The position numbers were made by a program, and so were the translations under genes. This document shows positions 1 to 62,589 of a stretch of 64,000 nucleotides of DNA, one piece after another. Origin of the DNA: Bispira polyomma. Its lineage: Eukaryota. The stretch is from positions 63,736,001-63,800,000 of the forward strand of contig OZ287751.1 in the NCBI GenBank assembly GCA_965649765.1. The letters are read 5' to 3'. The number at the start of each line of letters is the position of its first letter. The first letter of the stretch is position 1. The notes under the pieces are model-generated. The model saw only the letters and a list, made by a program, of their open reading frames with translations, was not told the DNA's origin and did not search any database.

Positions 1-3000
1 CAGAATAGATAGAGCAAAGTGAGTGTGGAATTGTTCTTAAGTTCTCATAACCTCATACTTAATTCAAACTAATGTTGCTTGAGACAAGAATGTACTGATG
101 TTAATGCTTTCCTATAAAAGCCCCCAGTTTGCAAATATGTTTTAGGGTGTAAATATTGGCAATCAAAGTAATAATATTTTTTGCGATGTTATAATTAATT
201 AATCCAGTAAAAAAGATGCATGTAAATAAGTTAAGAACTGAATAATTAACATACAAGTAAAATGATTAATATACAAGTGCAAAATATTTATTTAACTGAA
301 AAAATAGTATGCCTCTTGATTCTAGAGCTAAGTAAACTGTACAATCTAAACAGGACAAACACTTCATCTTAGAGCAATTAATATTTGGACCAGAAATCTG
401 CACATTACCAAACCACCCACATGTTTATGACATACCAGTTCTCCAATACAATATAAGAATATAACAGGGAGAACATGGTCCCCTCCATCCTTAAGATGTC
501 TGGACAATAAAGGTTGTCTGGACAACGGTCAACGGACAATAGACACAGTGATGGTGCAAGGTTAATCTCCTGTATTTATGAAGTAAATATATACATATAT
601 AGAAACTATTAAGTGTATTTTTACTGATTTCTCTGACGATAAAAACATGTGCAAGTGCTTTGCAAATTCTGCTTTTAAATAAATCTACGTTATTTAATAT
701 TGTATTTTTAGTAACAATATGTCAATACTCTCGCCTAAACATACATGTATTTCCACTCTCAAATAATGTAACAGAGGTATAACAGTCTTTACACAAGAAT
801 AATTGAAACTATATTGAATTACACAAATTTATGCATGCTTAGCAAGAGTGATGATTTACGACAATTGGTGTCGTAAATTGTTTTCCTTGATAAAAATACA
901 TAAGAACGTAACTATTTGAATTTCTTTGCTATGTGTCAGCATAAATAAACAATGTATGTATATGTATGTATCAATGTCAAATCAATGTCAGTGCAAGGCC
1001 ATTGGTGATACTCTATAATAATTATATTAAAAAATAGAGTTATTTATACACAATATTGACCATGATTTTATACTTACCATGATGTAAAATGAGGGTCATG
1101 TGATAATAAAAAGTCGTGGCAACATACAACATATAGGCCTCCGAAAGTAAGGGCTGAAAATGTTGGAATTCTGCTATAAACTATCAACCTCCTCCAGGCA
1201 TGACAATAAACTATCTGGACTCTAATTAAAAGAAATACTATACCAAAAGTGGAGAGAGAATGTGTTTGTGGACAATGGAGGGAAGACAAATATAGAAATT
1301 ATTTTAGTTGAATAAAAGATGAGTAAATGGGTTCTAAAATTGGGGTAACATAAGTAATTAAAAAAAACCTTTCCAAAAATGAAGAAATATTTTTTTAAAC
1401 ATTCAATGGCATGTACTTAATTCCTTAACCCCATCTACCAAAAGAAAAGATGATTAAAAAAGAGATTTGCTAGGTGAATGGAAGCTTAAGTCTTTCAATT
1501 AGATGAATAACTGAAACAAATAAAACAGTTACACTGGCCCCTGATGTGGTTAAGTTAAAACAGCTGTGACTTGTTGACATGAATATTGTAACAGCATATC
1601 ACTCAAGTGGGATTCAATAAACAGAGAAAAAACTAACTTATAGGTTTAGCAGTGGGAAATGTTTCATTATTTACACTTGACATGGCAAAAAACTCCAACA
1701 GGATTTGAACTGTGAAAAAATCAAAGTCATGATTGAAAATTAAAGATAGAAAACTATGCCACATTGTTGTTCAAAAAAGCATAATCAAACACAAAGGTGG
1801 CTAAAGTAGTAGTAATAGGTCGAGAGAGTGTCTGAGAAGAATATCAGACAAAACCTGTTAGACCCTTTTGCACATAGGCGAATTGTCGACAAGCAGCGAC
1901 ATGAAATGTTGTGTTGTCGCAAAAGGTTCTCTCATTGCTTTCTTGATGTCAAACTCAATTATTTTTGTTTTTTTTTCTGTTATCTCCTTGTTGTCTCCAG
2001 TAAAGGCCCAATTGCCATGACCCTGTGGTTTTGCTGTTGTGTCTTTATTGTTTTCTATTGTCGCCAAACCAATAAAAGTAGATGACAGTAAGTGACAAGC
2101 AGGAGACATGAAAGAGACAATGTTGTACAGAAATCACAATAATGTCTCACAGTGGTCTTATCACTGTCGTTGAACAACCCGAAAATAACCAGGTTTGTCA
2201 TACCATTGCCTTATCCTTGCCTCGATGCTGATTCCCTACTATCTCCCTACTGTCTCACTGTGGCCTTATGGCTGTCCTAACTATGTCTCCTAGGGATCGT
2301 CATACTGTCTAAACGATTGTATTGAAAGGCCTCTTTGTTTTTGTTTTTTTTCCCAGGTGACAATGGAGCCAAATAGGCAACTAATTATCTAAACATTTTT
2401 GTTCAAATTTGGTGTCTGAGTGGGACGTCACTTTTAGCTTCTAATTATACTGGTGTTTGTTTATCTATTCTGAGGTGAAGGAACATAAATGCCACCAGAA
2501 AAATATCACAGTTTTTTAAGCAACAAAACTAAACATCTGGGGACATTGTGTCTTACATAAAAAGCAGCAACTCAAATGTTTATCAACTATAATGTTTAAG
2601 AATAGACTACTTTGGAGAACCTCAAATCGTCTTCAAGTGTATAGATAGATGTATATCTTGATTTACAGAGCATCTTCGTCTGTACTGAAGTGAATAACCA
2701 AGTGAAAATAAAAAAAAAAAAATATATCAAAACAATAGTAAAAATGCCGTCAGGAAAGATGATGATATGTGATACACCAGTATCAGCGTTTCCACTTTTT
2801 TGTGGATAATGTTTTTTACATATGCTTTTGGTCATTTACACAGTTAGTGATAGTCAAAAAAGAAATAGAAGAATTTAAAAATAAAATAAGTACCTCATAG
2901 GCAATTAGCAAGACAGCTATTAGCGGATATTAGCTATTAGCAGCAATTAGCAGGTATGTAAACCTGTCTGGAGACTGGAGAACATAGTACTCAACTCAGT

Positions 3001-4752
3001 TTTTTGTAAATGTTGCAATTGAGGCCAAATCAACAGTCAACCATTTATAGATAATGGGACAGTAGTATCTGTGTAAACAAAGGCTTTCTAATTTTTACAA
3101 TAACAATTTTAAAAAATAATATTGGTTTTTCAATATCATACATGACTAACTGTTTTTGTATGTATATATTTCTCCTTTTGCAGTCTAGTATAATTTTTTT
3201 TAAATGTTGTTGATGAAGGTTATTGCCTGAGACTAAGACCATTCTCAGTTCTAGGAATTGCATTCTATCAATATTTGAGAATATGGGCACAGCTGATACA
3301 GTCACAAAGCTTTAAATACAAGATTCCTGGAACATCTGAAAACCCCTTGTTCATCAATTCTATTCATTAAGTTGAAACCTGAACACAAATAACACGATAC
3401 GAGACCACAAACTTTAATAATAAACTGGGAATCTCACACATAGATACTTAACCCTGCTGAGGTAGAACAGTCTACTCGGGGTCCCAATAAACAGAGGGAT
3501 GAAAACGGGAGACAATTAGTTTAAGCAGTAGGGAATCCTGAATTTAGAAATGTCATATCCTGTGTCTCCTTGAGACATTAGAATAATAAAAATGGTTTAA
3601 AGGAGCAAACAGTGGTGTGCTTTTGTAGTCAATGCTGGTTTTCAGTGTTATTATTGTGTGTCTTTATTGTAACATATTTCAAATCAAATTAGCAAGAGGT
3701 GTCTGGCATTAAGGTGACTATGTGTGGTTGCTCCAATAATGTATACTTTATTACCTTGTGTAGTGTCTTGCAGCAGCAATCTTTTTTTGAAAAGTATACT
3801 TTTTTCCTTTAAGATATTAGTATTTTATTGTTGTATTGTACTTTTTATATACATTTTTTAACAAGCTTTAATTGGTGCGAGACTTTTTGTAAACTTCAAC
3901 AATTGAATCAATCAACCAATCATGCGTCCTACATCATAGCTCAGGTCGATGACAATGGCGTGTTTACTTCTTGTGCAAGGATGTTATCCCACCAATGAAA
4001 CTAGCAGCATTAGCAAGAGTCGAATCCACTGGAAATCATGCCACTGGGAGTGGAACCAAGGACCTTTTGATCAGCAGGCCAACTCTCAAAATACTAGGCC
4101 ACTACGGAGGACCATGCAGTTTCTCTGTTAGCTCCTTCAAAAAGTGTTCCTTACCTAAATGCCCGATATCATTCAGATAAATGTTCAGTAGTATTCATTG
4201 CATCCAGCAAATCCTGGATCCAGCAAATCCACTAATAGACTGACTAAAATTCCTCTATCCCCCCTCCTCTGCCACAAAGTTGTGGAGTGTTCAAAACAAT
4301 CTATAGCGAAACTGTGACAGACATGCCGCAAAAGTACCTCCACTAAAACCAACTAATGAGAAACGAAGACATAACCAAACACTGACAAATACCCACTAAT
4401 ACCTTACTAATCACAATGAAAGCTCAATATCTGCTACTAATTGACACTACAACTAGCAACACAACTTGATACTGACGTGAAACATTCCAAAATGAATCAA
4501 ACGTATACCTCTCCGCCCCCTCCCCCCCCCCCAAAAAAAAAAAGCCCTCACGGACACATTTGCGTTGTTTTAAAACATTTTTGTGACGATGCGAATAATG
4601 CTCATGAATATCAATGAAAAGTTCCGAGGCGCTCCTAATGTAGGTTTACCTAAAACAAAGTTGAAACTCATTGATCGATACAAAGACGTTTGTGTTGCAT
4701 TCGTAATGACCATCCATGTAATTATGCCCCTGTTACGCCTCTGTGTTGAAGA

Positions 4753-5010
4753 GGGGGCCGCGGTCGCCTAGTGGTTAGCAAGCATTGCGCTTCACAATCA
4801 CTGGTCTCTCACCTCTGGACGGCGTGAGTTCGAATCCCGTCCATGCCTATGTGGAAAAGGTGGTAGTTCCTTACTGTGGGCTGCTGGTTTCAGTGCAGAG
4901 CCTTGATCAACTGTATGCAGTGTTTTCTCCAGCGTTTCCAACTACCTGTCCTAATATAACCTAAACAAGTACTAGAGTGGACGTTAAATATTCAAATTCA
5001 ATTAAAAAAA
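4753..5010 (+). mobile_element. tRNA-derived SINE, family A
   Basis: A box (TCGCCTAGTGG) and B box (GAGTTCGAATCC). Near-identical copies at 10138, 18125 and 19266. Degenerate 15-bp TSD CTCTGTGTTGAAGAG (4739) / CTCTGCATTAAAGAG (5011). Confidence 0.9.
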
Positions 5011-5377
5011 CTCTGCATTAAAGAGCTTCTACTGTACAACGTTTAAAACGTTCCATAAAGTACCACAAAATGAGTATTCCTTGTGTGAACGTTTTTTGAT
5101 GTCATATTTCATTTCAGAAACATCTACATTTTGTCCTCCGCAACAATTATTTCAAACTGTTAAAAATAATCGTGGGAGAGGTCGCTGTTTCTGTATTCGT
5201 CACAAAATGTTTCACCAAAATAGCACTAAGTAGGAATAATTAAGTAGCTATATCTAGTACTGGATTGTGATAAAGTAACTATTTTTCTTATATTTTGATC
5301 TGAAAACGTCATAAACGTACAATGAACTTACGTATTCCTACTAACTAAAGTTACTGGATGCTTCTGAATGGCCCTTA

Positions 5378-6000
5378 TGTCCTGGTCACACCTTTCTGTT
5401 CTAGGGCTACGTTTGTGACATGTTTTGATAAATTTTGAAATGTTTTGAAACGAAGTAGAAAGTGGGGATCCTTTCTGCCATCGTTATGTGACAGATGATA
5501 TCGTTCCAGAAACGTCTCCGTTTGGTCTGCTGCCACAATTGTTTCAAACAGTTTGACAACTGCCGTTTCTCCACGAAGGCTACATTCATCTCTGTTTGTC
5601 CCGGAACGTTTCCGAAAGTAGCATATACGTATCATAGACATATCAGTAAGTAGCTCTACGTAGTAGTAGGTAGCGAGGAAGTCCCAGTAAGTAGTGATAT
5701 TGTCTCCACACGTTGTATTCGTCATTCTCTAGGTAGCAGAATGAAGCAGAACGCACCAGTAAGTGGAAGTCAATAGCTCCACATAGTAGTAGGTAACAAT
5801 ATCCTACCAGTCAAAGGTTCCTTTTTTTGCCCCCGCTCCGTGTGTATAAGTACCAATATCATCATGAAACGTCAGAAAATGTCACAATTGACTCCCTCTT
5901 TACGAAAACAACGTCACTTTGACACGAAGCTACCACATTTTCAGTTTATATTGCTTTGCTACGTTGTGAGACGTTAGCACATGTAGGTGTGACCAGGCCA
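5378..6000. mobile_element. Harbinger/Tourist-type MITE
   Basis: TIR TGTCCTGGTCACACCT ... AGGTGTGACCAGGCCA with TTA TSD (5375-5377, 6001-6003). Related copies near 13120-13661 and 62590-63075. Confidence 0.85.
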
Positions 6001-6967
6001 TTACGAGGCCAAAAACTGAAAATGACATCATCATACACAAGTTTTTCACTACGCTACTCAGTGCTACGTTTCAAACATAACTTTAGACATTATGGAACGA
6101 TTCACTGTGTAGGTGTGACCGCGCCAAAAATAACTCCCCCGCGCCCCCCCCCCATTTGTCCGTCTCCCTGGCTGTCCCTTAATTTTTTATTTTTGCCTAA
6201 CCCTTTTTGGTTTAGTGCTCTAGGGTCCTGTACCTGCAAACGCTTAAATTACGTTTCATTAGATACGTACATTTAATACAGGTTAGCAATGAATGTCTTC
6301 CAGTAAGTTATCTAGCTGTGTTTGTAGTACTGGAGTGTGACTAAAGCCTGACTTTTACCTTAGAATAAAAAAAAACAACAGCAAAACACACTGTATGTTA
6401 TAAAATATATAGGATTTTGGTTTGTTTGTTGTCTTTTTTGTAGTAAGTTGCCATTAGTTACAAATATAGGCAAATTCGTTACATCAAACATGTAATATTA
6501 TTTATAGAGTGTAAATATTGGTATTTAATAATCACCACAAATATGTGGTATTTAAGAGTCACTACACCCATAAAGCTGTATTTTACACATGCAATGAAAG
6601 CTTCCATGGCTTTCCATACAGTAAATTTATCCTTATATTTAATAACTTGCTGAAAAGGTTTGTTGCTTTACTGTCATATACAGCTGGTGTATGTTCATGC
6701 CTCTTTATTAAAATAGGGGTTTTATTAAAATGCCCCCCCTCCCCTCCTTAAAATTTGTTTTTGTTTAGTTGTGTGTGTTGTAGAATATTGAATAAAAAGA
6801 AAAAAAAAGAGCAGCACATTGTCAGTACGACTCCTCTTCTCAAAAGGCTCAATTGGCTACCTGTCAAGTGCTGCATCAATGTCCAGACCAATTTGTAAGC
6901 TGTAAACCTTTGCCAGTTCCCAGATCTTGCCTCACTGTTGTCTTTCAGCAGGTCTACCAGGGGGAAC

Positions 6968-16181: not shown

Positions 16182-16343
16182 AGAAAAGAGTGAAATAACA
16201 TCTCAGGTGGTGATTAGGAGAGACATCAGTGTGTGAAATAAAAAAGCCCAGCCAAAACCAAGTCATGTAGACAGATTGAGGTCTAAAAAACCTGATTTGT
16301 TTGAAGGGTAGATCTAAGACATTAGATCAAAACTCAACCCAAA

Positions 16344-17690
16344 ATGGATTTGACGACTGTAAAAGGAATGGCTGTAAATGGAAGATTAGAAGGAGGCTAT
16401 GATGCTGTTGATGCTTATCCTACTACCCTAGAGACCTCCGCCTCCACCAATAATTTGTCACTGGGCTTAATTTTGAGTAATGTGACAGAAGATGGTAGCC
16501 CCATCCCAGGTCAAGGGGGCGGCAGGCCTTTGCTGTGGTACCTGCATCTTTACCTCACCCCGGCCATCATCGCCGTAGGTCTGGCGGGTAACGGACTGAG
16601 TTTTATAGTGTGTGTGAAGACGCGCCTACGTCACCTCTCCTCCTCAGTGTACCTAGCCGCCCTCTGCGTGTCGGACTCCATGTTCCTCATCCAGCTCTGC
16701 GCCTACTGGCTCATCTACGTCCGCGTCTTCATCTTCCACATGGCCGGCCTGTGCCAGGTATTTGTTTACATTAGCTACGTCAGCAGCTTTCTCAGCGTCT
16801 GGTTTGTGGTGGCCTTCACCTTGGAGCGCTACATCGTATGCGTGTACCCATTACGCAAGCAGTCTATTTGCAGGGTGTCTAGGGCCCGTATAATAGTCGT
16901 CTGCCTCACAGTGATTGCCCTTGTGATGTACAATTTTGGCGCCTGGACCTCTGGCACAGTGAGTCAGCCCAGTGGTCACTCTGAATGCATTCCCCTGTTC
17001 AAGTACCGCTCCATCATCTCAGTTCTAAACAACATTGACACGTTCATCACCCTACTGGTCCCGTCCGTACTGATCATCTTCATGAACTTGCGGATAGTCT
17101 TCAACCTCTCCCAGCTGGGATCGGTGCGGGTGAAACTCCTCGGACCTCAGACCGAGGAAGACAACCGTATCCTGTCAAGGGCGCCCAGCCAGCTGAGCCA
17201 CAACTCTGTCGCCAATTCGCACGTTCATCAGCGTTCGCTGATCCAGAAGTCACAGGTGAAGATCACCAAGATGCTGGTGAGTGTGTCTAGTATCTTCATC
17301 ATTCTCAACCTCCCGAGTCACGTGATCAGAGTCTACATCACCATGGTGGATCTGTTCTCTGACAAAATGTACGATCCACCACACAGTGTCGTCATGTGGC
17401 AGCAGGGGTTCTATTTCATGTACTACACCAACTTTGCCGTGAACTTCTTCCTGTACTCGCTCTGTGGCCAGAACTTCCGACATGCCGTCCTGACACTGTT
17501 CGTCAAGGTGAAGTCGCGCATCAAGCGGATAAACACGGGCATCCACGGGTCAAGGATGTCGAGGAACACTACCATGGAAATGTGTTCAGTAACGCACAGT
17601 GGCAACGCATCCCCAACGCAAGACAACGACAAGACAACAAGATTTCCAAGCTCCTTAACTTTAAAAATCTCAAATAGTGGTTCTAAATAA
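16344..17690 (+). CDS. Class A peptide GPCR, FMRFamide/sex-peptide receptor-like group, most like CNMamide receptors; 448 aa, intronless CDS
   Basis: Seven hydrophobic segments: TM1 GN, TM2 LAALCVSD, Cys at the top of TM3, FTLERY, ECL2 Cys, TM5 LLVP, TM6 TKML..LNLP, TM7 NFFLY..GQNFR. N-terminal sequons NLS and NVT. AAAATGG start context; GC-rich codon usage. Confidence 0.95.
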   Translation: MDLTTVKGMAVNGRLEGGYDAVDAYPTTLETSASTNNLSLGLILSNVTEDGSPIPGQGGGRPLLWYLHLYLTPAIIAVGLAGNGLSFIVCVKTRLRHLSSSVYLAALCVSDSMFLIQLCAYWLIYVRVFIFHMAGLCQVFVYISYVSSFLSVWFVVAFTLERYIVCVYPLRKQSICRVSRARIIVVCLTVIALVMYNFGAWTSGTVSQPSGHSECIPLFKYRSIISVLNNIDTFITLLVPSVLIIFMNLRIVFNLSQLGSVRVKLLGPQTEEDNRILSRAPSQLSHNSVANSHVHQRSLIQKSQVKITKMLVSVSSIFIILNLPSHVIRVYITMVDLFSDKMYDPPHSVVMWQQGFYFMYYTNFAVNFFLYSLCGQNFRHAVLTLFVKVKSRIKRINTGIHGSRMSRNTTMEMCSVTHSGNASPTQDNDKTTRFPSSLTLKISNSGSK

Positions 17691-30470: not shown

Positions 30471-30591
30471 TACTAAATTATGATATTTATCTACTAGCCT
30501 AATAATATATATACACTATAAGGATTATTGTGTAATGTGATTATATTTAGTTTTTTTTATTGGACTTTTGCTAAGTGTTTCAGTGCATTGC

Positions 30592-31123
30592 AGTCTGTAA
30601 GTGCTAAGGCCACCACACCTTAAAAAAATTCATGTTCTTTTAAAATTGTAGTAACATTTTTCAGAAAGATTTCAACAAGGGGTTTCACCTGAGAAACTTT
30701 GTATAGAAAGAGACTTAATTTAGGTCTGATTCACAGAATATGTAAAAGGTAAGCGACAAGCCTTTTTTTTAGTAATTAAACACTATTTTACAGTGTATAT
30801 TTTACAAGTTAATCAGACAAATTTAGAGTTTTATTTTGGTCCAAAGATTTTCTTTTTGTATTGTGTTGTACATTTTTAACGAGCCTTATTGATGCTAGAC
30901 ATCTTCTAAGGCTCAACATCAGAATCAATAAACTGGTAGAAAAAACAAAATAATAGCCAGGTTGTCAGGAAGGATACGGGAGCGTCCAGGGAACGGCTAC
31001 GGAGGATAGACGAGCATGAAGAGATAGGTTTTAAGCTTTCTCCTATATCCAGAAAGTCTATAAAGCAAACTAAGCTTCCTGTAAGCAATCTTAGCTTGGT
31101 TATAAGTTCTTCTGAACACCACA
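30592..31123 (+). repeat. 532-bp direct repeat, left copy; contains an L2 3' end on the minus strand (~30870-31065)
   Basis: Ungapped match to 36363-36894 (offset 5771); 12 substitutions by my count. Confidence 0.97.
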
Positions 31124-31322
31124 GTGACTACAACAGTCGTTTAAGTTGTGAGTGAAATTGAAAATGTTGTACTGGCCTAGGGTGACCTCTAAAGGTCATA
31201 GATATTGAGGGTGAGGAATCAGATGCTGTTTGGGATAATTTTTATTCTAACTACTCGTCTCTATATCCAACTGTACAAGAAAATTATTTTCGATTAACAA
31301 TTTTTAAAATGCCAAAGCCAAA

Positions 31323-32302
31323 TTAGAAAGTAGAAGAGACGAGGAATGCGAAAGTTGTTGGAATAATTGTGGAAGCATGAGAGGTAGATTGAAGGTGAGA
31401 CCAAACAGCATCTGATTTCCAGCATCCATGTTTTTGAAAATGCTGAAGTTTAACGTTAGCATTAAATGCCAAGGAGGCTCCCGAGCGCCTGAAGCAATGG
31501 AAAGAATGCCCTTCTTTTGGGATATTCAACTGGGTTAAGATAGAGCTAAGGGTATGCCTTAAAGTCGAGTCTGAAAGGCACTGGCCTTTATGTAGTGGGT
31601 TTGCCAGTAATGGGTAAGAAGGGGGCAGAGGATATTTGCTAAATAGAGAAGTGGCTGCCTTCACAGGACAGAGCCATGGGTTTGAGAGTGCTGGTAGTTG
31701 TAGGATGTCTGGGTTTTTCCTGGTTTGGTTAGTCTTACTCCATTTTAATATGAGGTGAATGCCTGGGGGGGCAAACAACACGTCAGCCCTTGTTAGGTGT
31801 CTGGTAGGGTCAAAGGGGAGACCTGATGTGGTGGTCAGGTTAGAAATGCGTAAAAAACCAAATTAAGCAAACAGGAAAGCTGTTCTGAATAAGTCAGGAA
31901 ATGGAAACTGGTTAGAAGCTTGTGAAATTTGTTGTAATTGGTGCAAATCGAATACCCCTTTGACCCGAGGTGTGTATTTCGAAGTGAGTTCTAATGACCT
32001 CAAATATAATGGCAATCTAGGGTCATAAAGACCGGTTTGCTGAATGTTAAGAATTTTTGTGTTGTGCCTAATGGAAGATAAGTAATTACTCAATACTTTG
32101 TAAGAGACACCTGTTTGTGTCATAAATTCTAAAAAGGCTATAATGCTGTTAAAGCAAAAGGTTTCCCTTAAATCAAAATAAACTGTAAAGCTCAAAAAGA
32201 GTCTGAACTGGCTGTCATATTGCCTTTGTGTCCTAGGTCTGTGACTTTGTCTCAGTCGTCTCAAAGCTCCTTTGATCAGTGAGGAGGCTGAGTCAGAAGT
32301 AT
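31323..32302 (-). pseudogene. E1 tyrosine recombinase
   Basis: FGFLRISN, KWSKT, HCFRRSGA, HGCWKSDAVWSHL. In-frame stop at 31863-31865. The catalytic Tyr position reads His (VWTYI in E2). No ATG near the 5' end. Confidence 0.92.
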
Positions 32303-32308
32303 CTGAAA

Positions 32309-34807
32309 TTACACATAAGTATCTAAGGTAAAAAATTCAATGGGTATGTCATGCATGATGAAGTTGTGTACAAGTTCCTGTTTTATTGTATTGTCATAAT
32401 GGTCTAATTCAAACCACCTAGATAGAGCGTCTGCTATTATGTTGTCCTTGCCAGGTATATGTCTGATAGTCAAGTCAATATTCCTTAGGGCACAGATCTG
32501 CCAGATGTTCCTTAAACACAAACCTAAATAGTCGTCCCTGGTTCTGGATGACTGTACGACAGACACCACAGCCATGTTATCCGATTGTATCTTGATCTTT
32601 TTATTACTCCATTTGTGACCCCATAATTTGAAAGCTATGAGAATACTGACCATTTTGAAATGGACAATGGAAAGTGTTTGTTTAAGGAAGCATGGTAGAG
32701 GGGCTTTGAAAACCTCTAAACCAGAAATGCCACCGATTCCGGATAAACAAGCATCGACTTATAGTAACACGTCATGTGAACTATCCAGGTATGTGTACTT
32801 AGTTGTACCATTGAATTGTCTGAGAAAAGTTAAAAACCATTGTAAATCCTTATGAAACTCGCTTGTCAAAAGTACTGTTTTACTACTAGTAGATTGCCTT
32901 AATAAAGTTAACATTCTGTTCATAAATATCCGAGAATTCTTCACGCAGAGCTGTATGTATAATAACTTTCCCAGTAGTGACTGGTACTTCTGTTTACGTA
33001 CTTTATGCAAGTATTTAAATTCCATACAGATGTCAAATATGGAGTCTAATTTAGTTTGTTCAATACTGAGTGTTTCGAGATCTATGTCAATAGTGATGCC
33101 CATGCAAGTTACACGTTTACTAGGGGGAACTAGTTTCTTGGTATTAATAGGGAGGCCTAGGTCTGCTACGATTTCTTGTAAAGTAGTGTAAGCTAAGTCA
33201 GCCTTATCTTCAGTCTCAACGAGTATGAAATCGTCGATATAGTTGTAAACTATATATCCTTTCTGTCTTATAATATAAGTAATACAATCAGAAATCATCA
33301 TAAAGGCCACCGTGCCATGAGTGAGTCCAAAAGTTAGACTGAGATCAATGAAATAATTATTTTTCCAAAGGTAACCTAACTTCAAACAATCAAAAGGATC
33401 AATTCTTAAATTTCTAAACGCGTGCGCGATGTCCACTTTCGCTAAGGTGGCCTTAGTTCCTAACTCAACAATACGGGTAGTGATTTGATCAATGGTAGGT
33501 AACCTTAAATTAAACTCGACGTTATCATATTTATTTTTAATTGTACAATCATTTACAGATTGTCCCAGGGGGTGAGAAAGGTTAAGAACTAAATGACGCT
33601 GATCAATATCTTTAGGTACCGTTAATAAAGGTGAGCAATGTATATCCGGGTGAAGTTTTTCTAAAATAGGGCCCACTATGGTGCCCTTAGCTACTTCTGT
33701 AACGAAATACTTGTCAATGGCTTGTGGAAACGCCATAGCCGAATAATGGTTTTTGACATTTATGACCTTCAATCTGTCCCTCTCATACAGAGATATAGGA
33801 AACCCGAATTCTATATACTGTAAAACAATTTGATCCGGATAATCGACTAAGTATTTCTTCCAATTGAGAACATTGAGATCACTTTTAATGGGGAAACGCG
33901 CTTGTCTGTAGTTTGGCACCTTAATGGTTTTAATAATATCAGCTACTTCCAAAAACTTATCATAAGAAGTCAAGTCTACCTGTTGTCTGTCTGGTCCTAT
34001 GAAGTTAAAATGGTTTCTCCCTTGAGGGATGAAGCCATAAGTTCTTTGGTCAGTAGGTAAAATGTCCTCATTCACAAATTCTTCCCTTGTGGGCGAGTGC
34101 TGTATGTCATTGGTTTGTAATACAACGTCCTGTGGAATATCGGTTACTATGTGTGTGTCCTCAGTTATTGTATGGTTCCGTGAAAGGAACTTGTCATTCA
34201 CCCAAGCGTTTATATGCTTGTTGTATGTTGTTTGTGTGGTTTGTTTACAAATGTTGTCAATGATGGTAATATAATAATCAGAAGAACTGATGTTTGTACG
34301 GGTATGAGTAACCTTCTTAGGTTTTGGTAAAGGTTGAACCTTGCTATATGAAACAGTGTTTCTAACTAGAACAGGTACAGATAATGTGTGAACAAAACTG
34401 ATGGGCCACATTTTTTCTAGAGAGAGATCATGTTTATGAAGTGACCATTGACCTTGAAAGAAAACCCAAGTGTATACACCTGAAACACTGGGGTCAGCAT
34501 TACAAACAATATAATACACTGGGCCTTTTAGGCCATCATAACTGTGACTACTGTACAAGTCAACCAAAAAAGAGGTTGCAATAAAATTACTACTGCCATG
34601 AACTTTTGCTGGACAAAACTTGTGACCAATAGGATATGAAGCTGAATTTCTACTACACGAGACGTTATTTTGTCCATCTGTCGTGAATACATCACAAGAA
34701 CAATCATTTAAGAACTGTCCATGCCTAAAGCTCATACTGTTCATAAAAATGTTCCTTTGGTTGACTAACTCAGAATTTTGCTTATTATACTCATGTCTTA
34801 AGTTCAT
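32309..34807 (-). pseudogene. E1 pol (reverse transcriptase + RNase H)
   Basis: LAKVDIAHAFRNL, LTFG, YNYIDDF, CMGITID, SLLGKL. Frameshift near 32760, then VDACLSGIGG, SDNMAVV, HIPGKDNIIADALSR. Confidence 0.93.
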
Positions 34808-34912
34808 GCTCTCACAATGCTCCTGCTCTGGAATCTCGACATCCGAGGAGGAATTCGAGGAAGTTGAATTTGAAGATGAGCCGTTCGAAATTAAGGCCTG
34901 GGAATAGGACAG

Positions 34913-35970
34913 TCAGTTCATTGTCCACCTAGTTTCGTCTACCCAGCTGAGGCGCCCCTCTTCCACATCGTGCATGTTACATGCATACGAACCTCTGGCT
35001 ACCTGCCAGGAGATATTAGAAGCATCTTTTAAAGTATCTGCTAACTGGATTAACATGGCGCGAGAAATAGTAGGGTTTCTCACTTCTAAGATGTTCTGCA
35101 ACTGACCTGCAGCAAATTGTGACACAGTGAGCTCATCATAAGAAACTCGTTTCTTATTAATCCCAGATAAACATGCTTCATTAGGCCAACGTTTGATTGG
35201 GTCGGTAACACACACTTCAGATACATTGTACCGACCAGACTTGCGTTTAGTACTGAGCTTACCTTGAAGCGATTCATCAGCAGCCAATGCCTCGTAACGG
35301 GCTAACCGTTGTGAAACCTCGTTCTGTATCATAGAGGACTGCTTTAATACATCTGGAGTAGGCAGGATTGCATCATGTAGCGACCTATGAGCTTGGTCCT
35401 GAGTGTAACCCTCCCGTTGAGCGTTGTAACGTGTCGGGTACGTGTCATGGGAAATGTGAGGACGAAAATCGTTGACTCCTGTGTAATTCACTGCAGGGTC
35501 CTGGAACTGAGAGAAGCTCTGGGTAAATGGTAAAGAAGAACCTATGTTCTGTGTAAAAGGTGCTGAAGCTTAGGTGGAGCTGGCATCTGAGGCCTAATTG
35601 TCTGAGGTGTTGACGGGACCTGAGGGGAAAATGAACGAGATGTCTTTAAGCCGGATACGTCTTCCTGTAACATAGCTACCGTGGAAACTAGTGTTTTTAT
35701 CATAGACTGCTGCTCTGTGAAAATGTCTTTGTAAAACTGACCAGAACTCACGTGATCTTCAAAAAAGTGACTCGAGTCGGCGACGGAGTTGAGCGTGCTA
35801 GTTTCACCTCCCGCTCCATGAACTTCAGTAGAAAAGACTCTGCTGGCTTCTGCTTCTGACAACTCATCTTCGATGACTAGACGACACCTATTACCCACTG
35901 GTCAAGGGTGTGAAAAATTACAGCGTGAACACAAAGCTACAGTCACTTGCTTTCTCTTTCCTCGGCCCAT
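34913..35970 (-). pseudogene. E1 gag-like ORF
   Basis: ATG at 35970: MGRGKRKQVTVALCSRCNFSHP*PVGNRC. Frameshift near 35570. WPNE..SYDELTVSQF..WQVARG..EEGRLSW is homologous to E2 gag. Confidence 0.85.
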
Positions 35971-36362
35971 AACGAGATATCCAATTCAAAAAGCACACTA
36001 TAAGATGGTAGACGTTAAAACTGACTAAAATCACTAAACGTAAACGTGAAACAATGTCTAAAAAGTATAAAATAAGCTTGTTTCCATTTGCACAATCACT
36101 TATTTCCAATATGGCGGCTCTATTTGCCAATTCCAATGTGATTTCAAAGTGTTGCTACATTAACTTGCAACTTAATAATGACCAAATGTGGGAAAAGGCG
36201 GGAAATTGACTTAAACCTAAGGAATTTGATTGGTAGTGAAGTAAGAGAGGTTCTGGTCTAGGATTGGTGTATCTGGGTAAACAATTCTTAAGTAGGTAAA
36301 TAATACAGTAAGGTATTACAACTTCGCGACTGACTAGCCATGCTTTGCGAGCAGTGACTACA

Positions 36363-36894
36363 AGTCTGTAAGTGCTAAGGCCACCACACCTTAAAAAAAT
36401 TCATGTTCTTTTAAAATTGTAGTAACATTTTTCAGAAAGATTTCAACAAGGGGTTTCACCTGAGAAACTTTGTATAGAAAGAGACTTAATTTAGGTCTGA
36501 TTCACAGAATATGTAAAAGGTAAGCGACAAGCATTTTTTTTAGTAATTAAACACTATTTTACAGTGTATATTTTACAAGTTAATCAGACAAATTTAGAGT
36601 TTTATTTTGGTCCAAAGATTTTCTTATTGTATTGTATTATACATTTTTAACGCGCCTTATTGATGCTAGACAACTTCTAAGGCGCAACATCAGAATCAAT
36701 AAACTGGTAGAAAAAACAAAATAATAGTCAGGTTGTCAGGAAGGATACGGGAGCGTCCAGGGAATGACTACGGAGGATAGACGAGCATGAAGAGATAGGT
36801 TTTAAGCTTTCTCCTATATCCAGAAAGTCTATAAAGCAAACTAAGTTTCCTGTAAGCAATCTTAGCTTGGTTATAAGTTTTTCTGAACACCACA
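36363..36894 (+). repeat. 532-bp direct repeat, right copy
   Basis: Matches 30592-31123 without gaps. Confidence 0.97.
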
Positions 36895-46199: not shown

Positions 46200-47197
46200 T
46201 TATACAGCATTAAGTAGGCGCTGGAAAGTTGCAGCCACTTCTGTTGAGCCATTATTGCTCTGAATATACGTCCATACACAATCCGACTTCCAGGTGCCAT
46301 GCTCCTTGATTTGCTGTATAGGTACATCTGCTTTATAAGCTAGAGTGGCACCTGAACGTCGAAATGCATGGAATGTATAATAATTAGATGGATAATCCAA
46401 TTTATTGTTAAGTAGTGCCAATGTTTTCCTAACTCTTGAATCCGTAGCCACCTGCCAGCCCTGAGCCATCTTGCACTGGAACAATGGATCTTTTTTACCA
46501 GGATTGTAAAGATGAAATAACTTTCTTAAGGCTGTATATGGACAAATGGTAGAAGAACCTAATCGTGGCAATGTCAAAATTTGCACCTTGTCCCTAGTTT
46601 GCATAGTCTTTGTCCATTTTAACTATATTTTGACTGTGTGCTTCTGAAAGAACACATCTGCACCAGTTAAGTGCCTGGTGTGATCAAATTCCCTGATTGC
46701 ATGTGGTGCGATATTTGAGAGTCTCAAAAAGCCAAAGTATCCTGTTAAAAAAATAGCCTTGTATACGTACGAATTGCTTATATAATTGCATTGAGCTACC
46801 AATCTTTCAAGTGTGGGCACATCCATGATATTTCTCTTAACTATAGTATGAGTTCTATTAATCTTTAATGACTTGATAAAGTATTTTATCTTCGGGTGAT
46901 CAAAGATTACAAATTGTAAATCATATACAATACACATGGCTTTAATAGCTGCAACGTAGTTTGCCACCATATGAACTGAAACTTTATTGATAACCAGAAA
47001 CTCTAGAAATGACATAATACCATTTATATTTAAACATTCCAGTGCTATATTAACACAAAGGCAAAAAGCCACAAAAGTTCTAAATAAACCTTGGTAGCAA
47101 AGCCTGGTCTTTGGTCGAAAGGCAGTGTGTAATCTCTTGCTAGCTTTTATCTGTAGCTTTTGCACTGCTCCAAGCTCTACAACACAAAGCATAGTAT
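46200..47197 (-). pseudogene. E2 tyrosine recombinase
   Basis: YFGFLRLSN, KWTKT, HAFRRSGA, HGTW, VWTYI (catalytic R-K-HxxR-H-Y present). One in-frame TAG at 46623-46625. Confidence 0.93.
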
Positions 47198-47203
47198 CTG
47201 TTA

Positions 47204-49791
47204 TTAAAGTGTATTATCAATGTCTGTCAATTCTAAAGACGTTTTAACCATACTGGGTTTTCCACCAATGTGTTCAATTCTTGTACATTATCAATTGTAT
47301 ATTTCCAACGTGACAATAGATCAGCGATTCTGTTGTCTCTTCCCATGACATGTATATATTGGAGCTCAATGTCTGCTACTGCAGCCATATACCATATATT
47401 TGTCGCACATGCTGAGAGATAAGGGTCTCTGGCCCTGCCAGATTGCAATACATTCCCAACTGCATTGTTATCACATTTAATAAGGACCTTACTACCTGTC
47501 CAGTATTTTTGGTATAACTTTAAGGCTACTAGTATGTTAATCATCTCAAGATGAACTATGCCAAGATTTTGAAAATTTGTTGGTATTGGAAGATGATATA
47601 CAAGACTTCTCCATCTTCCTCCCAGGCCATAAAGGCAGGCGTCTAATTTCAATGTTTGATCAATGCTTTTATGTCCATACATGTATACACCATTGTATAG
47701 CGGCAAGAATCTATCGAACCATCTCAGATCCCGTTTGAACTCTTCTGTTAAAATGACCTTGTTTGGATTTGAAATACCTCTTAACAATTCCAACATCCTA
47801 TTTAGGAAACACCTCGCAGGTTTGACGCATTTGTGAATGTATAACAATTGACCTAACAAAGATTGCAAATGTTTTTTGGTACATTGTTTTTTATTTTGCC
47901 ATTGACTGACCGTAGTTCTAATTTGCTGTAATTTCTCGTCTGGTATGGTCATTGTGCCTTTTACAGTGTCAATTAGTACTCCTAGGCACACTGCTTGTGT
48001 GCTAGGAGACACTAACTTTTTCTGACTGATTGTAAGTCCTAACTTTTCCATGATTTTATACAAGCACTGAAATGAGCCTTTTGCTGAGGTGGGCGTACCT
48101 TAACCAAGGAAATCATCAAAATAGTTGATGACGCTATGGCCACGTAGACGCATGATGTAACGCACGGCGTCACTGACGCGTTGGAAGAATTGGCTGCCGT
48201 GACGGCTCCCAAAGGGGAGACACGTGTCTACATAAGTACCTTGCCAATTGAGTCCTAACAAGTCATAATCAATGGGATCAATTTTTAAATGGTGAAACGC
48301 GCGACTTACGTCCAACTTATAGATGTGAGCGCCTTTTCCCAATTTGGTAACTTCTTTAGTAAGATTGTCAATAGTGGGGAAGCTGAGCTTAAAATCTGCC
48401 CCTAAATAGCTATCTTTTTCTACCCCATCATTTACTGAATAACCTATAGGCCAACTCAAGTCTATAATTACTCGCCTGTTATCTGAATTAGGCTTGTGCC
48501 TAGTCATGAACGGTGAATGATGGCCGTTTACAATTGGGTTTTGTTTGAAGGGTCCTATTATCGCCCCGTGACTTTTTTCCTCATCAGTGTAAATCTGGAC
48601 ATCATTGGGATATTCTATTGCTGACTTATGATTGTCCACATCACACCTGAGTTCACATTTCCGATTAAAACCTAAGGGAAACCCAAACTCAATGAGCTGA
48701 AGTAATTGCTGATCCCAATAGTCCCTCAACATAACCTTCCATTGTTCTGTGTTTAATTGAGATGTCACTTGTATTCGAGCCCCCATGAAATTTGGTTGCC
48801 CCTTTTCTTTGACTTTCTGATGTAACTTAATTGGGCATTGAATGGTTGTGTTTGTAAAGCTGCTACCACTTGGTAGTGTTTGCTCAGTGATTGGAATAAA
48901 TCCAAATTGAAACTCTGATTGTTTTGTAAACTTAGTGAAGCTGTCACAAATGCCACTGATTTGTTTTGCTTTGACACCTTTATTGTGAAACAATATTGAG
49001 TTAATGAATTTATCGTCCTGAATGCTATTTACATCAAACAATAGTTTTGTTTTGGCCGGGCTATTATCATCATGCGCCACTTTGTTCACTTTTGTGGGGG
49101 AAATCCCCCTTTGTGATTGTTGCTTGTTGTGTTTACACCTTTCCTGGAAGAGAGTAAGTTTTTGTGTTGTGACACTACTAACCGCATTGTTTGATTTTGC
49201 GTTGAGTGTTTTGACACCCTGTGGTTGTATTTGGTGTTTGCTTACTTTACATCAAAAACCCACACTATTTTGCCTAGCTTTAACCGCACTGGCATAAGAT
49301 CTGATTTTGACGTCATAACTGACGGCCCGATATGTGCACATGACACTTTGCAACGGACGAACGAGTAAACTTTCTATGTCACTTTTTCTCACTTCTTTGC
49401 TATAAAAAAATCTGCCAACATAACTTGTGTCACGCTGTTTACATTTAAAACCAGCAAGGTACTTTGCCTGCTTTGTACTGACATTTGTATCAATAGTATT
49501 TACACATTCAGTATTACTAACACTAGAACCATTTGTTTTTCCATTCACACTAAAAACATTGACAACCTCTCTGTTTTTGTTTACCTGTGACTGACTGGCC
49601 TTACTACTAAACCAGCTGCCTTCCAGTTTAGCAAATATGTCTGTGGAGTTTGCCCCCAATCTCGTGATCTTTGATTTGTTGACAAGCACCAGTCTGGTAA
49701 AATTTACAGAACCATGGTTTTTTGTTACTGTCAGATTTCGGCCAATTTTTTGTCCCTCCAAAATTATTATGGCTGGTGTGCTTTTGTGCAT
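47204..49791 (-). pseudogene. E2 pol (RT + RNase H), 5' end overlapping gag
   Basis: RVIIDLS, YKLDVSRAF, LPFG, INYFDDF, in-frame TAA at 48100-48102, LDACLYGLGG, CDNNAV, HVMGRDNRIADLLSR. 5' boundary approximate. Confidence 0.92.
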
Positions 49792-50692
49792 GAGCCCTGC
49801 GAATATGGTCTATTCTATTTGTGTCATCCCAGGTAAGGGAGCCCCTCTCCATCTCACACAGGAGTACTGCGTGAGCAGCCTTAGCCCCCTGCCACGTAAA
49901 ATCCGTGGCGTCCTCCATTAAATCAGACATATATGCGATCATTTTATCTTTCTTACCTCTATCAGATTCCTCACTTATGTTTTTGCAAAAACCTTGTACC
50001 CATTGGGACATTGACAACTGATCATAGGACAATCGAGTTCTTGTTGCCCCCCCTAATATTGATTCTTGAGGCCACGCTACTTTTTGTTTTACCACAACTT
50101 CCACTGGACAACCCCTTTTTGACTTAATTTTATTTACATTCTCAGTACCTGAATTTCTGCTGTCCTTCTCCAGTTACCTTAATCTGGAGTCAACTCTACG
50201 TTGGAAAGATGCCGAGGCCCTTAATGTAGCCAAACTAGGGAGTACTTGTTCCTCGTCAGAGGATTCACTATCAGATGTACTATCACTGCTATTCTGGTTA
50301 TTACATTGAACATTAGTTTTTTGACGAATTTTGCTTAACCTCCGCCCACCACTTTTAAGCACGTCCTTCTGTCGGCTGTTGCTGGATTCCGCTACCTGCT
50401 CCTCTACTACATCAAGACGAGAGTTCACCCGCTGTAGTTCCCTCAATATCTGCAACTGGACGCTATCCTGGACACTATCCCGCACTGCACTGCGTCCCTC
50501 AGCTCTTGCACTATGACTTTGCTGCCCATTTTCGCTAACATTAGTGTCCAACACTGTATGGGCTTCCAACACCGCCGTGTCATTATTATTGAATTTTTCA
50601 GTCAATCTTACACCACGTGTGCCCTTTTTTCCAGTTGGTGGAATGTGTTTTTCCTCACACTTTCTACACAGCGCCTTTGATTGTTTAGGCAT
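49628..50692 (-). pseudogene. E2 gag-like ORF
   Basis: MPKQSKALCRKCEEKHIPPTG. In-frame TAA at 50174-50176. WPQE..SYDQLSMSQW..WQGAKA; C-terminal CKFYQTGAC..H..HIC zinc finger. Confidence 0.88.
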
Positions 50693-52212
50693 ATTTCCGA
50701 ATGTTTACTGTTTATGCTATTATTGTTCTTATATCAGTTTCTGAAAGTAAGAAAATATACACAGGCCCCCAGCTCTCCCTTCTCACAGCACCATGACTTG
50801 GTTTAACTCGACGAATTTGACTATAAAGCAAGAATGATAAGTTAGGTTAGACCATCCCTTAATTCCGACCTAAAAAGGTCAAACCAAGCATGAGGCTGTC
50901 AGAATGAGCGATCTGTAAACACTGAGAGAGAAACGTTGTCAAATCCACACAATGTCTGTTGTAGATAACTAAAAACACTAAAATAAGTCCTTGTAGTATA
51001 ACACGTAAAACATTAAATAAAACAGTTTGTAAAAAAAAACTTGAAGAAAGTATTTTAGTTTTCTGCCACACTTGTCTGTGGCCAAATTCAAACTGACTTA
51101 TTATTAGGTGAAAAACCCTGCTGTTTATGGCTACAGCCAATGAGATTGATTGTTTGACATTTACTTAGCAACATGGGGGTTTGTTTACTTGTTTAGCCAT
51201 TAAGCAATTTTTACCTGTGTATTAGCCTGATACCCTCACTGAGTTTAAGGTCGTGTAGGACTGACAAGGGCAATGCCTTAACACTGCCCCCGAAAAGTAA
51301 GTCAAATCGCTAATCAAAATGGTAACTACTTAAGCCCGAAGTTTCACTCGGAACTGGAATACACCTACAAAAGTGATAATATTCTTACATAAAGTGGCCT
51401 TTAACTCCCTCCGAACTGCCTTAAAAAAAGCTCTTCTTGTTCATATTATCACACAGTGTCTTAGGTCAAAGTATTAACCTAATGCTTTTTGACTATTTGA
51501 GTAGAATTTTCAATCTTGTGAGAAAAATGACCTTGTGGGCAATGTGAAGTGTAAAGTGATGTCATGTGACCCTTTGATGGATGGCCAGTGTCAACAGTCA
51601 AACCACTTAAAAAGAAAGCCCCAACTAATGTCATATCATGTGTCTTTATGTCACCTAAATAAAAGACTAGTTGGATCACATCGGAGTTGACTTAGCTTTT
51701 AAAGAGAAATATCAACAAAAAACATACTGGAATTCACCTAGCTTTTAAAGAAGAGTTTTAACAATAAACAACAAGATAAGTAAAAGTTTTTCATCACAAG
51801 TTTAAGTAATATAAACACGTTATATAGATATATTCTGTAACATTTTCCCAGTTTGTGTTGCAGCAGCAAACATTATGAAACAAAATCGAAGTTTTCTTTT
51901 TGTGTTAAGATTAGATTTTGTTAATTTGGTGGAAAGTTTGTGCACGTGTTAAATATTGTTCATCAGTTCATTTGTTTCATTAACTTAGAACTCTACTTAT
52001 TTTCTGTATTTTGCTGTCTACATATTCTGTAAATTGAGGAATTTTATTTTTAACTAGACATTGTTAAGAGTTTAAGTGACTTTGAGTTCTCCTAGAGAGA
52101 AGATTTTGCATGGCCTAAACGGACTAGATTGCATTACATTAGATAAATATGCCAAATTATTGAATGTAATGTAAAATTTGGATAATCTAGATACAAGTAC
52201 CACCATGTGGGT

Positions 52213-59070: not shown

Positions 59071-59537
59071 AAACCCCATTTTTTGTTACATTCCTCTCTT
59101 AAAAATTAAATAGAAAGGGTGTGTATATTAAACACAATAACCCTGACTCATATTTAAAAGTAAAGAATACCTTACTCCATATATTAACCCCAATCGCCAA
59201 TTTACGAGTCCGTGATTGATATACCAGGCGAGGTTTTGCAGTCTCTGACTGCTATCTTCTTGCTTATATACTATTTACCATAGACCATGACAACGTATAA
59301 AATAGGTACTTTAATATGAGGTGAACTAGGGATTTTCTTTTAAGTCAGAAGAGTGATATTGCGAGTTAAGAAAATCAAATATTTGTATACTAGAGGTTTG
59401 GGAAATAGATTTTGTATTGCATTGTCATTTTTATAGTCAAATACAAATTAAATTAATCATGATGGAAACCTAGGTATTGTGCATAGTTACGGAAGCCTAT
59501 AAGGGTCACATGAGTAAAGTTTGAAAAAAATCTATTC

Positions 59538-59785
59538 TATGTCGTAATTACGACTTACTATGGCGTAATTACAACTTACGCTATGTCGTGATTACGACTT
59601 ACCCTATGTCGTAATAACAACCTACTATGTCATAATTACGACATACTATGTCGTAATTACGACTTACACTATGTTGTAATAACGATTTACTATGTCTTAA
59701 TTATGACTTATGGTATATCGTTATAACGACTTACTATGTTGTAATTACGACTTATGCTATGTCGTAATTATGACTTACTATGTTA
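59538..59785 (+). repeat. Tandem array of 21-23 bp units with palindromic core GTCGTAATTACGAC
   Basis: About 11 units of CTATGTCGTAATTACGACTTA. Confidence 0.95.
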
Positions 59786-59978
59786 TATAAATGACAAGAC
59801 TAATATGTTTTGATCACTGGATTAAAGCTTACAGACAGTGGATAGTTAATTTTGCAAACACAGTTAATTGTTCTTTACCTATTATTTAACATCAGTTGAT
59901 TTTGTGAGAATTTGTAACCTTGTTCTAAGTTATGGCACAGCTACACATACACACAAGGGTGTACACCTGGGCATACCT

Positions 59979-60208
59979 GGGATCTCAGTGATGTAGGGGT
60001 AACACCCTTGCCTCCCACCTATAGGGTCGCAGGATCAAACTATGCTGTGACTTTTTGTGGGAAAGTTGGTGGTATACTTGCTGAAAGTCATACAGTTTTA
60101 CAGAGCTTGACCAACACACCGGCTGGTTTCCTCCACCACTAAGCCACCTGTCGTGATATGACTTATACAATGTATTAAACACAATGTAAAAAAACACAAA
60201 TCAAATCA
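59979..60208 (+). mobile_element. tRNA-derived SINE, family D
   Basis: tRNA-like head, GGTTTCCTCCACC body, (AAATC)n tail. TSD-like ACCT(G/T)GGCATAC at 59965 and 60209. Confidence 0.8.
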
Positions 60209-60744
60209 ACCTTGGCATACTGTTTAGTTTGTATGTTGGATACAATAAAAAAGTGATTTTTGGGGTGGATCAGTCTATGTACATATTTCGTAAGTAAACC
60301 AAAACTGAGTTTAAGAAAATTATTAGCTTAAAAGTTATACAATCCAAACAAAGAACATTGTGGGGAATGAAACTGTATCACCTGCCAATGAAAACCTGTT
60401 AATGAAGTGTTTTAATAAAACAACTATCAACAATAAATAAATCTGAAGGAATTGCTGGGAATTAAAAAGTAAATGACATTCTTTGCAACCAAATGGCTCT
60501 AAAACATATTATTTGTAAATAAATAATATTATACAGGATAATCTTCGCAAAAATGGTAAATAGTATTCTTATGTGTAGGAGTCTACCTATCTGGTGTGAC
60601 AGGGTTCACATTCCCCCAACCACCCCCCCAAAAAGTATCACTTAAAAATTCCTGGCAACCCCTATGTTCATACATACATACATAAATTTTTTACTAATAT
60701 CGCATGTTTATAATTTATAGTAAATATATTAGTAACTTGTAGTT

Positions 60745-61038
60745 TGTCGTTATTACGACATACCATAAGTCGTAATTACGACTTATGCTATGGAATGGTA
60801 AGTCGTTATTACAACATAGCGTAAGTTGTAATTACAACATAGCATAAGTCGTAATTATGACATAGTAAGTCGTAATTACGACATAGTAAGTCGTTATTAT
60901 GACATAGTGTAAGTCGTAATTACAACATAGCATAAGTTGTAATTCGACATAGTAAGTTATAATTCCCACATAATAAGTCGTTATTACGACATAGTAAGTT
61001 GTTTTTACGACATAGGATAAGTCGTTATTACGACTTAT
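60745..61038 (-). repeat. Inverted copy of the GTCGTAATTACGAC tandem array
   Basis: About 13 units of TAAGTCGTAATTACGACATAG. Confidence 0.95.
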
Positions 61039-62589
61039 GAATTTTTTTAACTTTACTTGTGTGACCCGTACATAGTACATGTGTCATGCATAGTAAAAAT
61101 ATGGAGAGAACAAAAATTAAATTATCGTGTCATTATATATATTGTAATAGCTGCCTATTTTTAGATTTTTTCCAACTACGCAATACATCCCTTCCTTACA
61201 CAGGAGGCTACACACAAGCACTTGTAATATCCAAACTAGCACTATGGAAATGCACTATACTATGGACTGCCGCAAACACTGATTCAAAAACATAATTCTT
61301 CTTTTAGTACTTTTTTAAAAAAAATTGTAAAGGTGCTTAGTAGTAGGCGCTATATTAAAGGGTAATGTAATGTGTGTTGTGAAGTCAGTCACCTCACTCC
61401 TGTGTGTGTTTTTGGTGGCCTGTCACAAGGACACTGTCCTATGCATGTTTAAAATCTCATTTATCTTTATTTATAGTTAGCCACAGATCCCCAGAGATAT
61501 TATAACCCTGCACTCAACTAGACCACTAGCAGTCTCTTCACAGAGTGTAACAAACCGAATTACCCATCTCCTGGCCCAGATTACACACCACTAGTAATCC
61601 TATCCCACAATCCATAATCTCATTAGAATGGATCCTTTGTAAGAAGAAGCCACAAGTAGAAGTGGAGGTGATCAATTTTTTCCTCTACAGAAGCAGAATG
61701 CTGTTTGTTATAGAGGAGTGGATACAAGTATCAATTTTTAATAGCAGAGGTGCTGTGCAAATGAATTGTGTCAAAACAACCACAAAGTTGTCCCTAGATT
61801 ATGTTAACTTAATGATCAATGAGGTTTTGTGAGCCATGTTAAGTCAAATAACACTATGTTTATAAACAACACACATGTAGTTCCATTTTACTTCTTTATT
61901 GGCCCATTCACACTTTGGCGGTATGGGAGACTGTGCCAGAAGATACCACAAGATACTGTAACTTTACTTTACACCTGTTAAATTGGCTGTTCCTTCCAGC
62001 CCAAACATAACCCCCTGACACTTGTTTAGATAAGTTTTACACACAGAAACAAATAAATAAAGCCGGGAATAGACAATTACTACCATGCAATACTTACAGT
62101 AGGAGTTGCTATAGTGTTTCGGTAAAAGTTGAACATGAGCGAAAACAGGTGGAAATAGGCAGAAACAGTAGTGATTTGGCAATACTAGGAAATATTAAGA
62201 GGCAACACAGAAGGATTACTCTACCTTGTTCCACCTTGTTGAGGCAGAAGTTCTGACCCTACCCAAAACTTCCGCCTCGCATGGTCGATTGTATAAGGTT
62301 GTGATGAAAGAAGTTGAACTTAGAGGAAGTTTGGGATAGGGTTCTCTGTGCAAAGAAATAATTTCCGTCACAGTTTGAATGTCACTAAAAAGTTTTAATT
62401 GACAAAGTTCAGATGTTTAGACTGGTCCCTGTAGCAGTAATTGTAAGTAATTTCTTACAAATTAGTTTTCTCTTGGGGTTAAGCATACAATATATTGATA
62501 TTTAATCACGGTACCATGTTATTGTCTTTAAAACATTCCTTATTTCCCTTGCTTTCACCCATGTATTTTGGTTTGTTGTTAGCGGGCAT

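Follow-up and report, generated by a model that had tools for sequence, protein, structure and literature searches.

A 532-bp host duplication around a truncated tyrosine-recombinase retrotransposon: a candidate scar of one-ended joining

The retrotransposon copy E1 lies within the 64,000-nucleotide stretch of DNA analyzed here (the window) between two long direct copies of one sequence, and the question that this locus raises is whether these copies belong to the element or to the host and, if to the host, how they arose, given that tyrosine-recombinase (YR) elements are reported to insert without duplicating their target (PMC3266345). Profile searches and self-comparison identified E1 as a minus-strand YR retrotransposon copy with split direct repeats and interrupted reading frames. 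Read in the element direction (all parts on the minus strand), it begins with repeat A1 (36140..36363, 224 bp), whose last window base, 36363, is the exact family end and forms a normal junction. There follow interrupted frames in the gag position (34913..35901), without a match in a Pfam search; interrupted frames for reverse transcriptase (RT) and for RNase H (RH) (32309..34912; RVT_1 E=5.9e-8, RVT_3 E=1.3e-4); a YR frame with one stop (31323..32336; PF00589 E=0.05); repeat B1 (31134..31314), which is 181 bp here versus 184 bp in the reference copy; and, beyond the internal B1|A2 junction at 31133/31134, a 10-12-nt remnant of repeat A2 (31122..31133), which is the abnormal, truncated end. 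Thus, the A1 side is exact, and the other side is cut 10-12 nt inside A2 at a 2-nt microhomology (CA). In a sister copy of E1, the YR domain scored better (PF00589 E=1.4e-4, a match below the Pfam cut-off), and its homologues have PF00589/PF02899. The first-pass annotation had described the insert as one unit plus 10-12 nt. Its length was right, but the full family element measures 6,503 bp, hence E1, which spans reference-copy positions 974-6503, is a truncated copy: B2, the spacer, and A2 except for 10-12 nt are missing, i.e., ~970 bp of the 3' end is gone. E1 is also short of the reference copy by ~259 bp near position 34844.

The plan of the family was established from full copies, which read A1, body, B1, A2, a spacer of ~580 bp, and B2 in the element direction, with A of 224 bp, B of 184 bp, and repeat copies 97-99% alike. 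The spacer contains no open frame of 80 codons, and self-comparison of a full copy revealed direct repeats only. By repeat plan and domain content, the family is assigned to the Ngaro type, and E1 would otherwise be an ordinary element of that kind. A split-direct-repeat plan without a methyltransferase defines Ngaro (PMC4157794, PMC9210276, PMC3783388). Ngaro (order DIRS) shares with the E1 family the arrangement A1-[gag, RT/RH, YR]-B1-A2-B2, the lack of a target-site duplication, and solo forms produced by recombination (PMC4157794, PMC9210276, PMC8547959, PMC3783388), solos being documented for Ngaro in PMC8547959. The E1 family differs from Ngaro in its ~580-bp A2-B2 spacer, in exact one-unit forms at 13 of the 68 loci, and in two copies with long host duplications. 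PAT-like elements combine split direct repeats with a methyltransferase, whereas the E1 family yielded no methyltransferase match: a search of four frames of a sister copy for a domain after RNase H gave no Dam match at E<=1, a threshold that a very divergent domain could escape, and the RNase H frame stops ~35 residues past its last motif. Like the E1 family, DIRS1-like elements encode a YR and RT/RH and carry an internal copy of the joined ends, and they are proposed to integrate where the host offers a short match, duplicating nothing (PMC3266345, PMC7192593); unlike them, the E1 family shows no inverted terminal repeats, no ICR, and no detected methyltransferase. The repeat plan of VIPER and TATE has also been described (PMC6681497).

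The two flanking copies, D-left (30592..31123, +) and D-right (36363..36894, +), were realigned without gaps and with 12 substitutions (97.74% identity), in agreement with the 532-bp ungapped duplication reported in the first-pass annotation, and the junction strings that it quoted are both present in the sequence. Since base 36363 is the last base of E1, the host duplication proper is 531 bp, or 529 bp if the terminal CA of D-left (31122-31123), which is common to host and element, is assigned to the element. A search of the 1.035-Gb genome with the repeat-free half of D, a check that had been proposed for an LTR-like repeat, returned two matches only, both at E1; a 19-mer taken from the far end of D likewise occurs exactly twice genome-wide. 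Beside 29 other family loci, D is absent except for one 41-bp repeat match. D is therefore single-locus host DNA, as had been suspected, and the alternative that it represents LTRs is ruled out, as it matches nowhere but E1 and does not flank other copies. An old interspersed-repeat fragment lies inside D (approximately 30850..31080, -), where its minus-strand reading ends in ...RRKLKTYLF. That a high-copy interspersed repeat is present there was borne out, and the fragment is likely the 3' end of an L2/CR1 element, given its ORF2-like ending.

If D is host DNA, the same picture could in principle be produced by an assembly in which an empty haplotype and a filled one had been fused. We compared the locus with assembled short-read contigs from three runs on two samples of one study, which may include the assembled sample. 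In X1, a contig begins exactly at 36363 with a depth of 33, versus 18-24 in the unique flanks. In all three runs, contigs begin at 36850, 30 bases ahead of the last difference between D-left and D-right and within a sequence stretch present only in the two D copies; this is the break predicted for a branch that does not rejoin, assuming 31-letter words. These starts are as a real duplication predicts, and the overlap at the join is only 2 nt, which also argues against a merging artefact. On the other side, the join between D-left and the element is spanned by none of the contigs listed, and the X3 contig over the host/D border at the left has a depth of 46 against 77-83 in the unique flanks, where a duplication predicts an excess. 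Overall, the assembled contigs fit a real duplication, and we consider an artefact very unlikely.

The first-pass annotation had also taken the left junction, where the last bases of the element adjoin its first ones, as a sign of a circular intermediate. This did not hold: full copies carry the same B1|A2 junction internally, so the junction is expected with or without a circle, and we reject it as proof of one. In the first search, A sequence preceded the junction at 22 of 29 other loci. The junction motif gave 45 matches in the genome and none for the control; A sequence lies upstream in 43 of the 45, of which 16 were viewed as 250-bp fragments, and the two without it are E1 and L097. A sister family of about 15 loci (L163-L178) has the junction motif too. 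One apparent second junction-proximal copy, L175, was discarded, as it turned out to hold a young SINE-like insert of ~250 bp inside A2.

How the family normally inserts was assessed at 68 loci, drawn from the best 40 matches of three DNA searches plus three pattern searches, a sample and not every copy; the 16 further junction loci known as 250-bp pieces, mostly of the sister family, lie outside this flank-duplication survey. Two exact ends were found at 45 loci (21 full-length, 13 one-unit, 8 solo B-spacer-A, and 3 short rearranged copies), one exact end at 22, and none at one; four short, internally deleted copies (L138, L157, L159, and L162) were counted as one-end-exact by alignment and may have both ends. 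The one-unit forms (A1-body-B1; e.g., L068, L069, and L088), all 13 of which begin at the true end, can result from B-B recombination or from circles freed when solo forms arise. Host tandem arrays allowed five empty sites to be rebuilt, and in all five no base pair had been gained or lost; among the 40 evaluable copies whose ends are both exact, none abuts a duplication of host DNA. Normal insertion in this family makes no target-site duplication, and E1 and L153 (below) depart from that. The seeming flank duplications of L083, L089, L094, L102, and L144 proved to be tandem arrays of the host, and these loci were set aside as not evaluable; the short flank matches of L071, L073, and L008/L076 fail to reach both element ends. 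Two other loci consist of circularly permuted pieces: L097 (C8:46.16 Mb) reads 979-3002 and then 594-979, opened 6-7 nt before the normal cut, and L154 (C3:29.68 Mb) reads 982-1145 and then 442-987. Both look as if small junction-bearing circles had re-inserted.

Insertion sites of the family share a bias on one side. On one side of the cut, the host bases resemble the element end: CA is found in 19 of 50 flanks (background 6.4%), A/T at +2 in 48, and G/T at +4 in 44, counts that include L080 and L151, later removed as non-host DNA. The bias reads C, A/T, N, G/T, C/T, and the other side of the cut has no clear bias. A target matrix built from the remaining 48 flanks places host position 30591 in the top 0.25% of window positions, which supports the earlier remark on its likeness to the element junction; the far end of D ranks in the top 0.75%. 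The actual join is at 30593, two bases from 30591, and has a mid-range matrix score; the copy at C1:77.99 Mb shows the identical two-base offset.

The first-pass annotation had called for a survey of long flanking duplications in the family. This produced a second case, with no significant enrichment. L153 (C2:106.04 Mb; within C2:106037000-106046999) keeps the B end exactly, breaks off at position 509 of 6,503, where the overlap is 2 nt, and lies between two perfect copies of 87-89 bp of non-tandem host DNA. It is the mirror image of E1, with the opposite end exact. Its 0 mismatches in 87 bp are compatible with a distance of 1.2% to its nearest copies (P=0.35). Long duplications occur in 2 of 22 one-end-exact copies versus 0 of 40 two-ended copies (p=0.12) or, leaving aside E1, which was itself the picked case, in 1 of 21 versus 0 of 40 (p=0.34). 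Thus, two cases in 68 loci are no significant enrichment. Duplications of another kind also affect the family. At C10:43.64 Mb (L063/L064, 43.63-43.65 Mb), a full copy is followed by 365 bp of host DNA, a partial copy (1653-6503), and the same host DNA; the tandem unit is 5,192 bp, 99.9% alike, with a 2-nt overlap. This tandem duplication postdates the insertion, and with it post-insertion duplication, a rival process for E1, is seen to exist in the family. In addition, a 4.4-kb tandem duplication (99.8%) with host breakpoints lies over a family fragment at L141/L142 (C10:53.59 Mb), and L146 contains a 522-bp internal unit repeated at 100%.

The age of the D duplication bears on whether it accompanied or followed the insertion. 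The D copies diverge by 2.26% (95% CI 1.2-3.9); the terminal branch of E1 is 1.06%, and the internal repeats of two sister copies differ by 1.95% and 1.23%. As the D divergence matches these measures of insertion age (Fisher p=0.41), duplication and insertion are of roughly equal age, and the duplication is far older than that at C10:43.64 Mb (12 of 532 versus 4 of 5,198 differences, p=5e-10). The ages are compatible with duplication at insertion; early or allelic exchange gives equal numbers. Changes fell on both D copies, 6 on the left and 4 on the right at 10 paralogue-covered sites, with one ambiguous. The differences are clustered, with 1 in the first 262 bp and 11 beyond (KS p=0.024), and they exceed expectation: by the stricter count, 33 E1-private changes in 5,229 positions predict 6.7 differences in D, versus 12 seen (P(>=12)=0.04). 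Both the clustering and the excess would suit two alleles or later gene conversion.

A further proposal was unequal recombination between two insertions that had arisen separately, one at each side of D. The product would be an element flanked by D, and both D ends are good targets. However, the sister copy of E1 is the same one in all three segments, the distance of E1 to that copy is even (0.8-2.8% over 11 bins), and the 12-nt remnant would be unexplained. We therefore reject E1 as a chimera or hybrid of two distinct insertions; the crossover is largely refuted and scarcely credible. Diagnostic sites for B1/B2 or A1/A2 were sought across 19 copies, and no fixed differences were found. The donor could have been a full circle, a one-unit circle, or linear cDNA, and loss of B2-spacer-A2 could also have come later by repeat recombination.

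We propose that the duplication is likely the result of a faulty insertion, in which the recombinase joined the A1 end only and host repair synthesis joined the other, and we put the probability of this reading at roughly 0.55. The A1 end would have been joined to the host at 30592/30593 by the element's own tyrosine recombinase, and the second join would have miscarried. The element's loose end, either trimmed back to the A|B junction or opened close to it, may then have used the CA microhomology to pair with intact host DNA lying ~530 bp off, after which repair would have copied the host segment between the two points, as proposed for aberrant retroviral integrations. E1 and L153 both show the hallmarks of one-ended integration: one end is exact, the other is truncated at a short homology, and the host duplication is long. 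The same division of labor between recombinase and repair had been suggested in the first-pass annotation, and it gains from the independent, mirror-image L153 and from the matching age. We favor one-ended joining because it accounts for an empty template at both E1 and L153, for the ages, and for a break within 12 nt of the junction, which by chance would fall in 0.2-0.4% of positions. L097 is a second junction-proximal join (6-7 nt). We regard the junction anatomy as real, having been seen twice, and its cause as probable rather than proven.

The most serious competitor is that a normal full-length insertion at 30592/30593 came first and that a later microhomology template switch or unequal exchange joined an empty chromatid, at the D end, into A2 of the filled chromatid, the recombinase playing no part in the duplication. 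Microhomology-mediated tandem duplication by template switching leaves one new junction, a 2-nt overlap, and a kilobase-scale unit, as at E1, and here, too, a single new junction with a 2-nt overlap suffices. The difference is that, at E1, the element is missing from the unit's other copy, which means that empty DNA served as the template. The event at C10:43.64 Mb shows such an exchange on a filled chromatid, and an empty chromatid would yield the product seen at E1; the 4.4-kb duplication with host breakpoints hit another fragment, and the clustered D differences fit allelic mosaics. Against this, the break within 12 nt of the junction would have to be chance, and an empty partner would be required at both E1 and L153. 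Moreover, the known post-insertion duplications are near-identical, whereas D dates with the insertion, and the listed unique-flank contigs of both samples show 0 differences, thus giving no sign of 2% allelic divergence. On balance, we consider later exchange unlikely, while giving it real weight. Were it correct, E1 would be an ordinary local rearrangement beside an ordinary transposon.

The recombinase might instead have made both joins, at targets 531 bp apart on two chromatids, with the internal junction of the inserted copy, cut at a look-alike CAGT 12 nt upstream, recombining with the far end of D. That far end is a strong family target by the matrix score given above, and the cut end opens with the four bases of the true end (22 of 6,503 positions do so). 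However, microhomology repair would leave the CA match too, the cut end of L153 is 509 nt from any junction, and 13 of 13 unit-length copies start at the true end. We hold this two-target scheme to be improbable.

One-ended joining followed by repair has a precedent in aberrant HIV and ASLV proviruses, in which integrase joins one end and host repair the other, often truncated via short homology, with duplications of hundreds to thousands of base pairs (PMC5041404). The cases seen there with weak or inhibited HIV-1 integrase, or with one bad ASLV end, resemble E1 in their normal end, their truncated end with short homology, and a host duplication of hundreds of base pairs (same source). E1 differs in its enzyme, a tyrosine recombinase whose normal insertions duplicate nothing, in that the copies are natural germ-line fossils, and in that the mechanism is reconstructed from them. 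A literature search of freely available main texts found neither long duplications nor one-ended integration described for DIRS/Ngaro (YR) elements.

More generally, and tentatively, with somewhat less than even confidence, the strand joins of YR retrotransposons may uncouple in the germ line, such that either end is joined alone, repair completes the insertion, and long host duplications are left. If so, these fossils, together with the permuted inserts and the one-sided target bias, would argue for integration by a single strand exchange that can accept incomplete DNA, and they would bear on the proposed model of DIRS integration, in which a double-stranded circle undergoes concerted exchange, while DIRS-1 cDNA has been observed to be mostly linear and single-stranded (PMC7192593). 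Integration of YR retrotransposons is largely an inferred process. If one join can take place by itself, it should leave copies that are exact at one end and accompanied by a long host duplication; such scars are countable in any assembly. Recombination between the two host repeats presumably offers such a copy a way to be lost cleanly. For annotators, a caution follows: what look like "LTRs" flanking a YR element may belong to the host.

Three other features of the window were recorded. A second RT/RNase H/YR element, which looks unrelated to E1, lies at 46200-50704 on the minus strand, and self-comparison of 43.5-53.5 kb showed no terminal or split repeats. At 16326-17690 on the plus strand, a single open frame of 454 codons matches the rhodopsin family of 7TM receptors (PF00001 E=5e-22). 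Finally, an element-like stretch at 59513-61039 contains a ~22-bp unit in long arrays, which are inverted and about 1.1 kb from each other.
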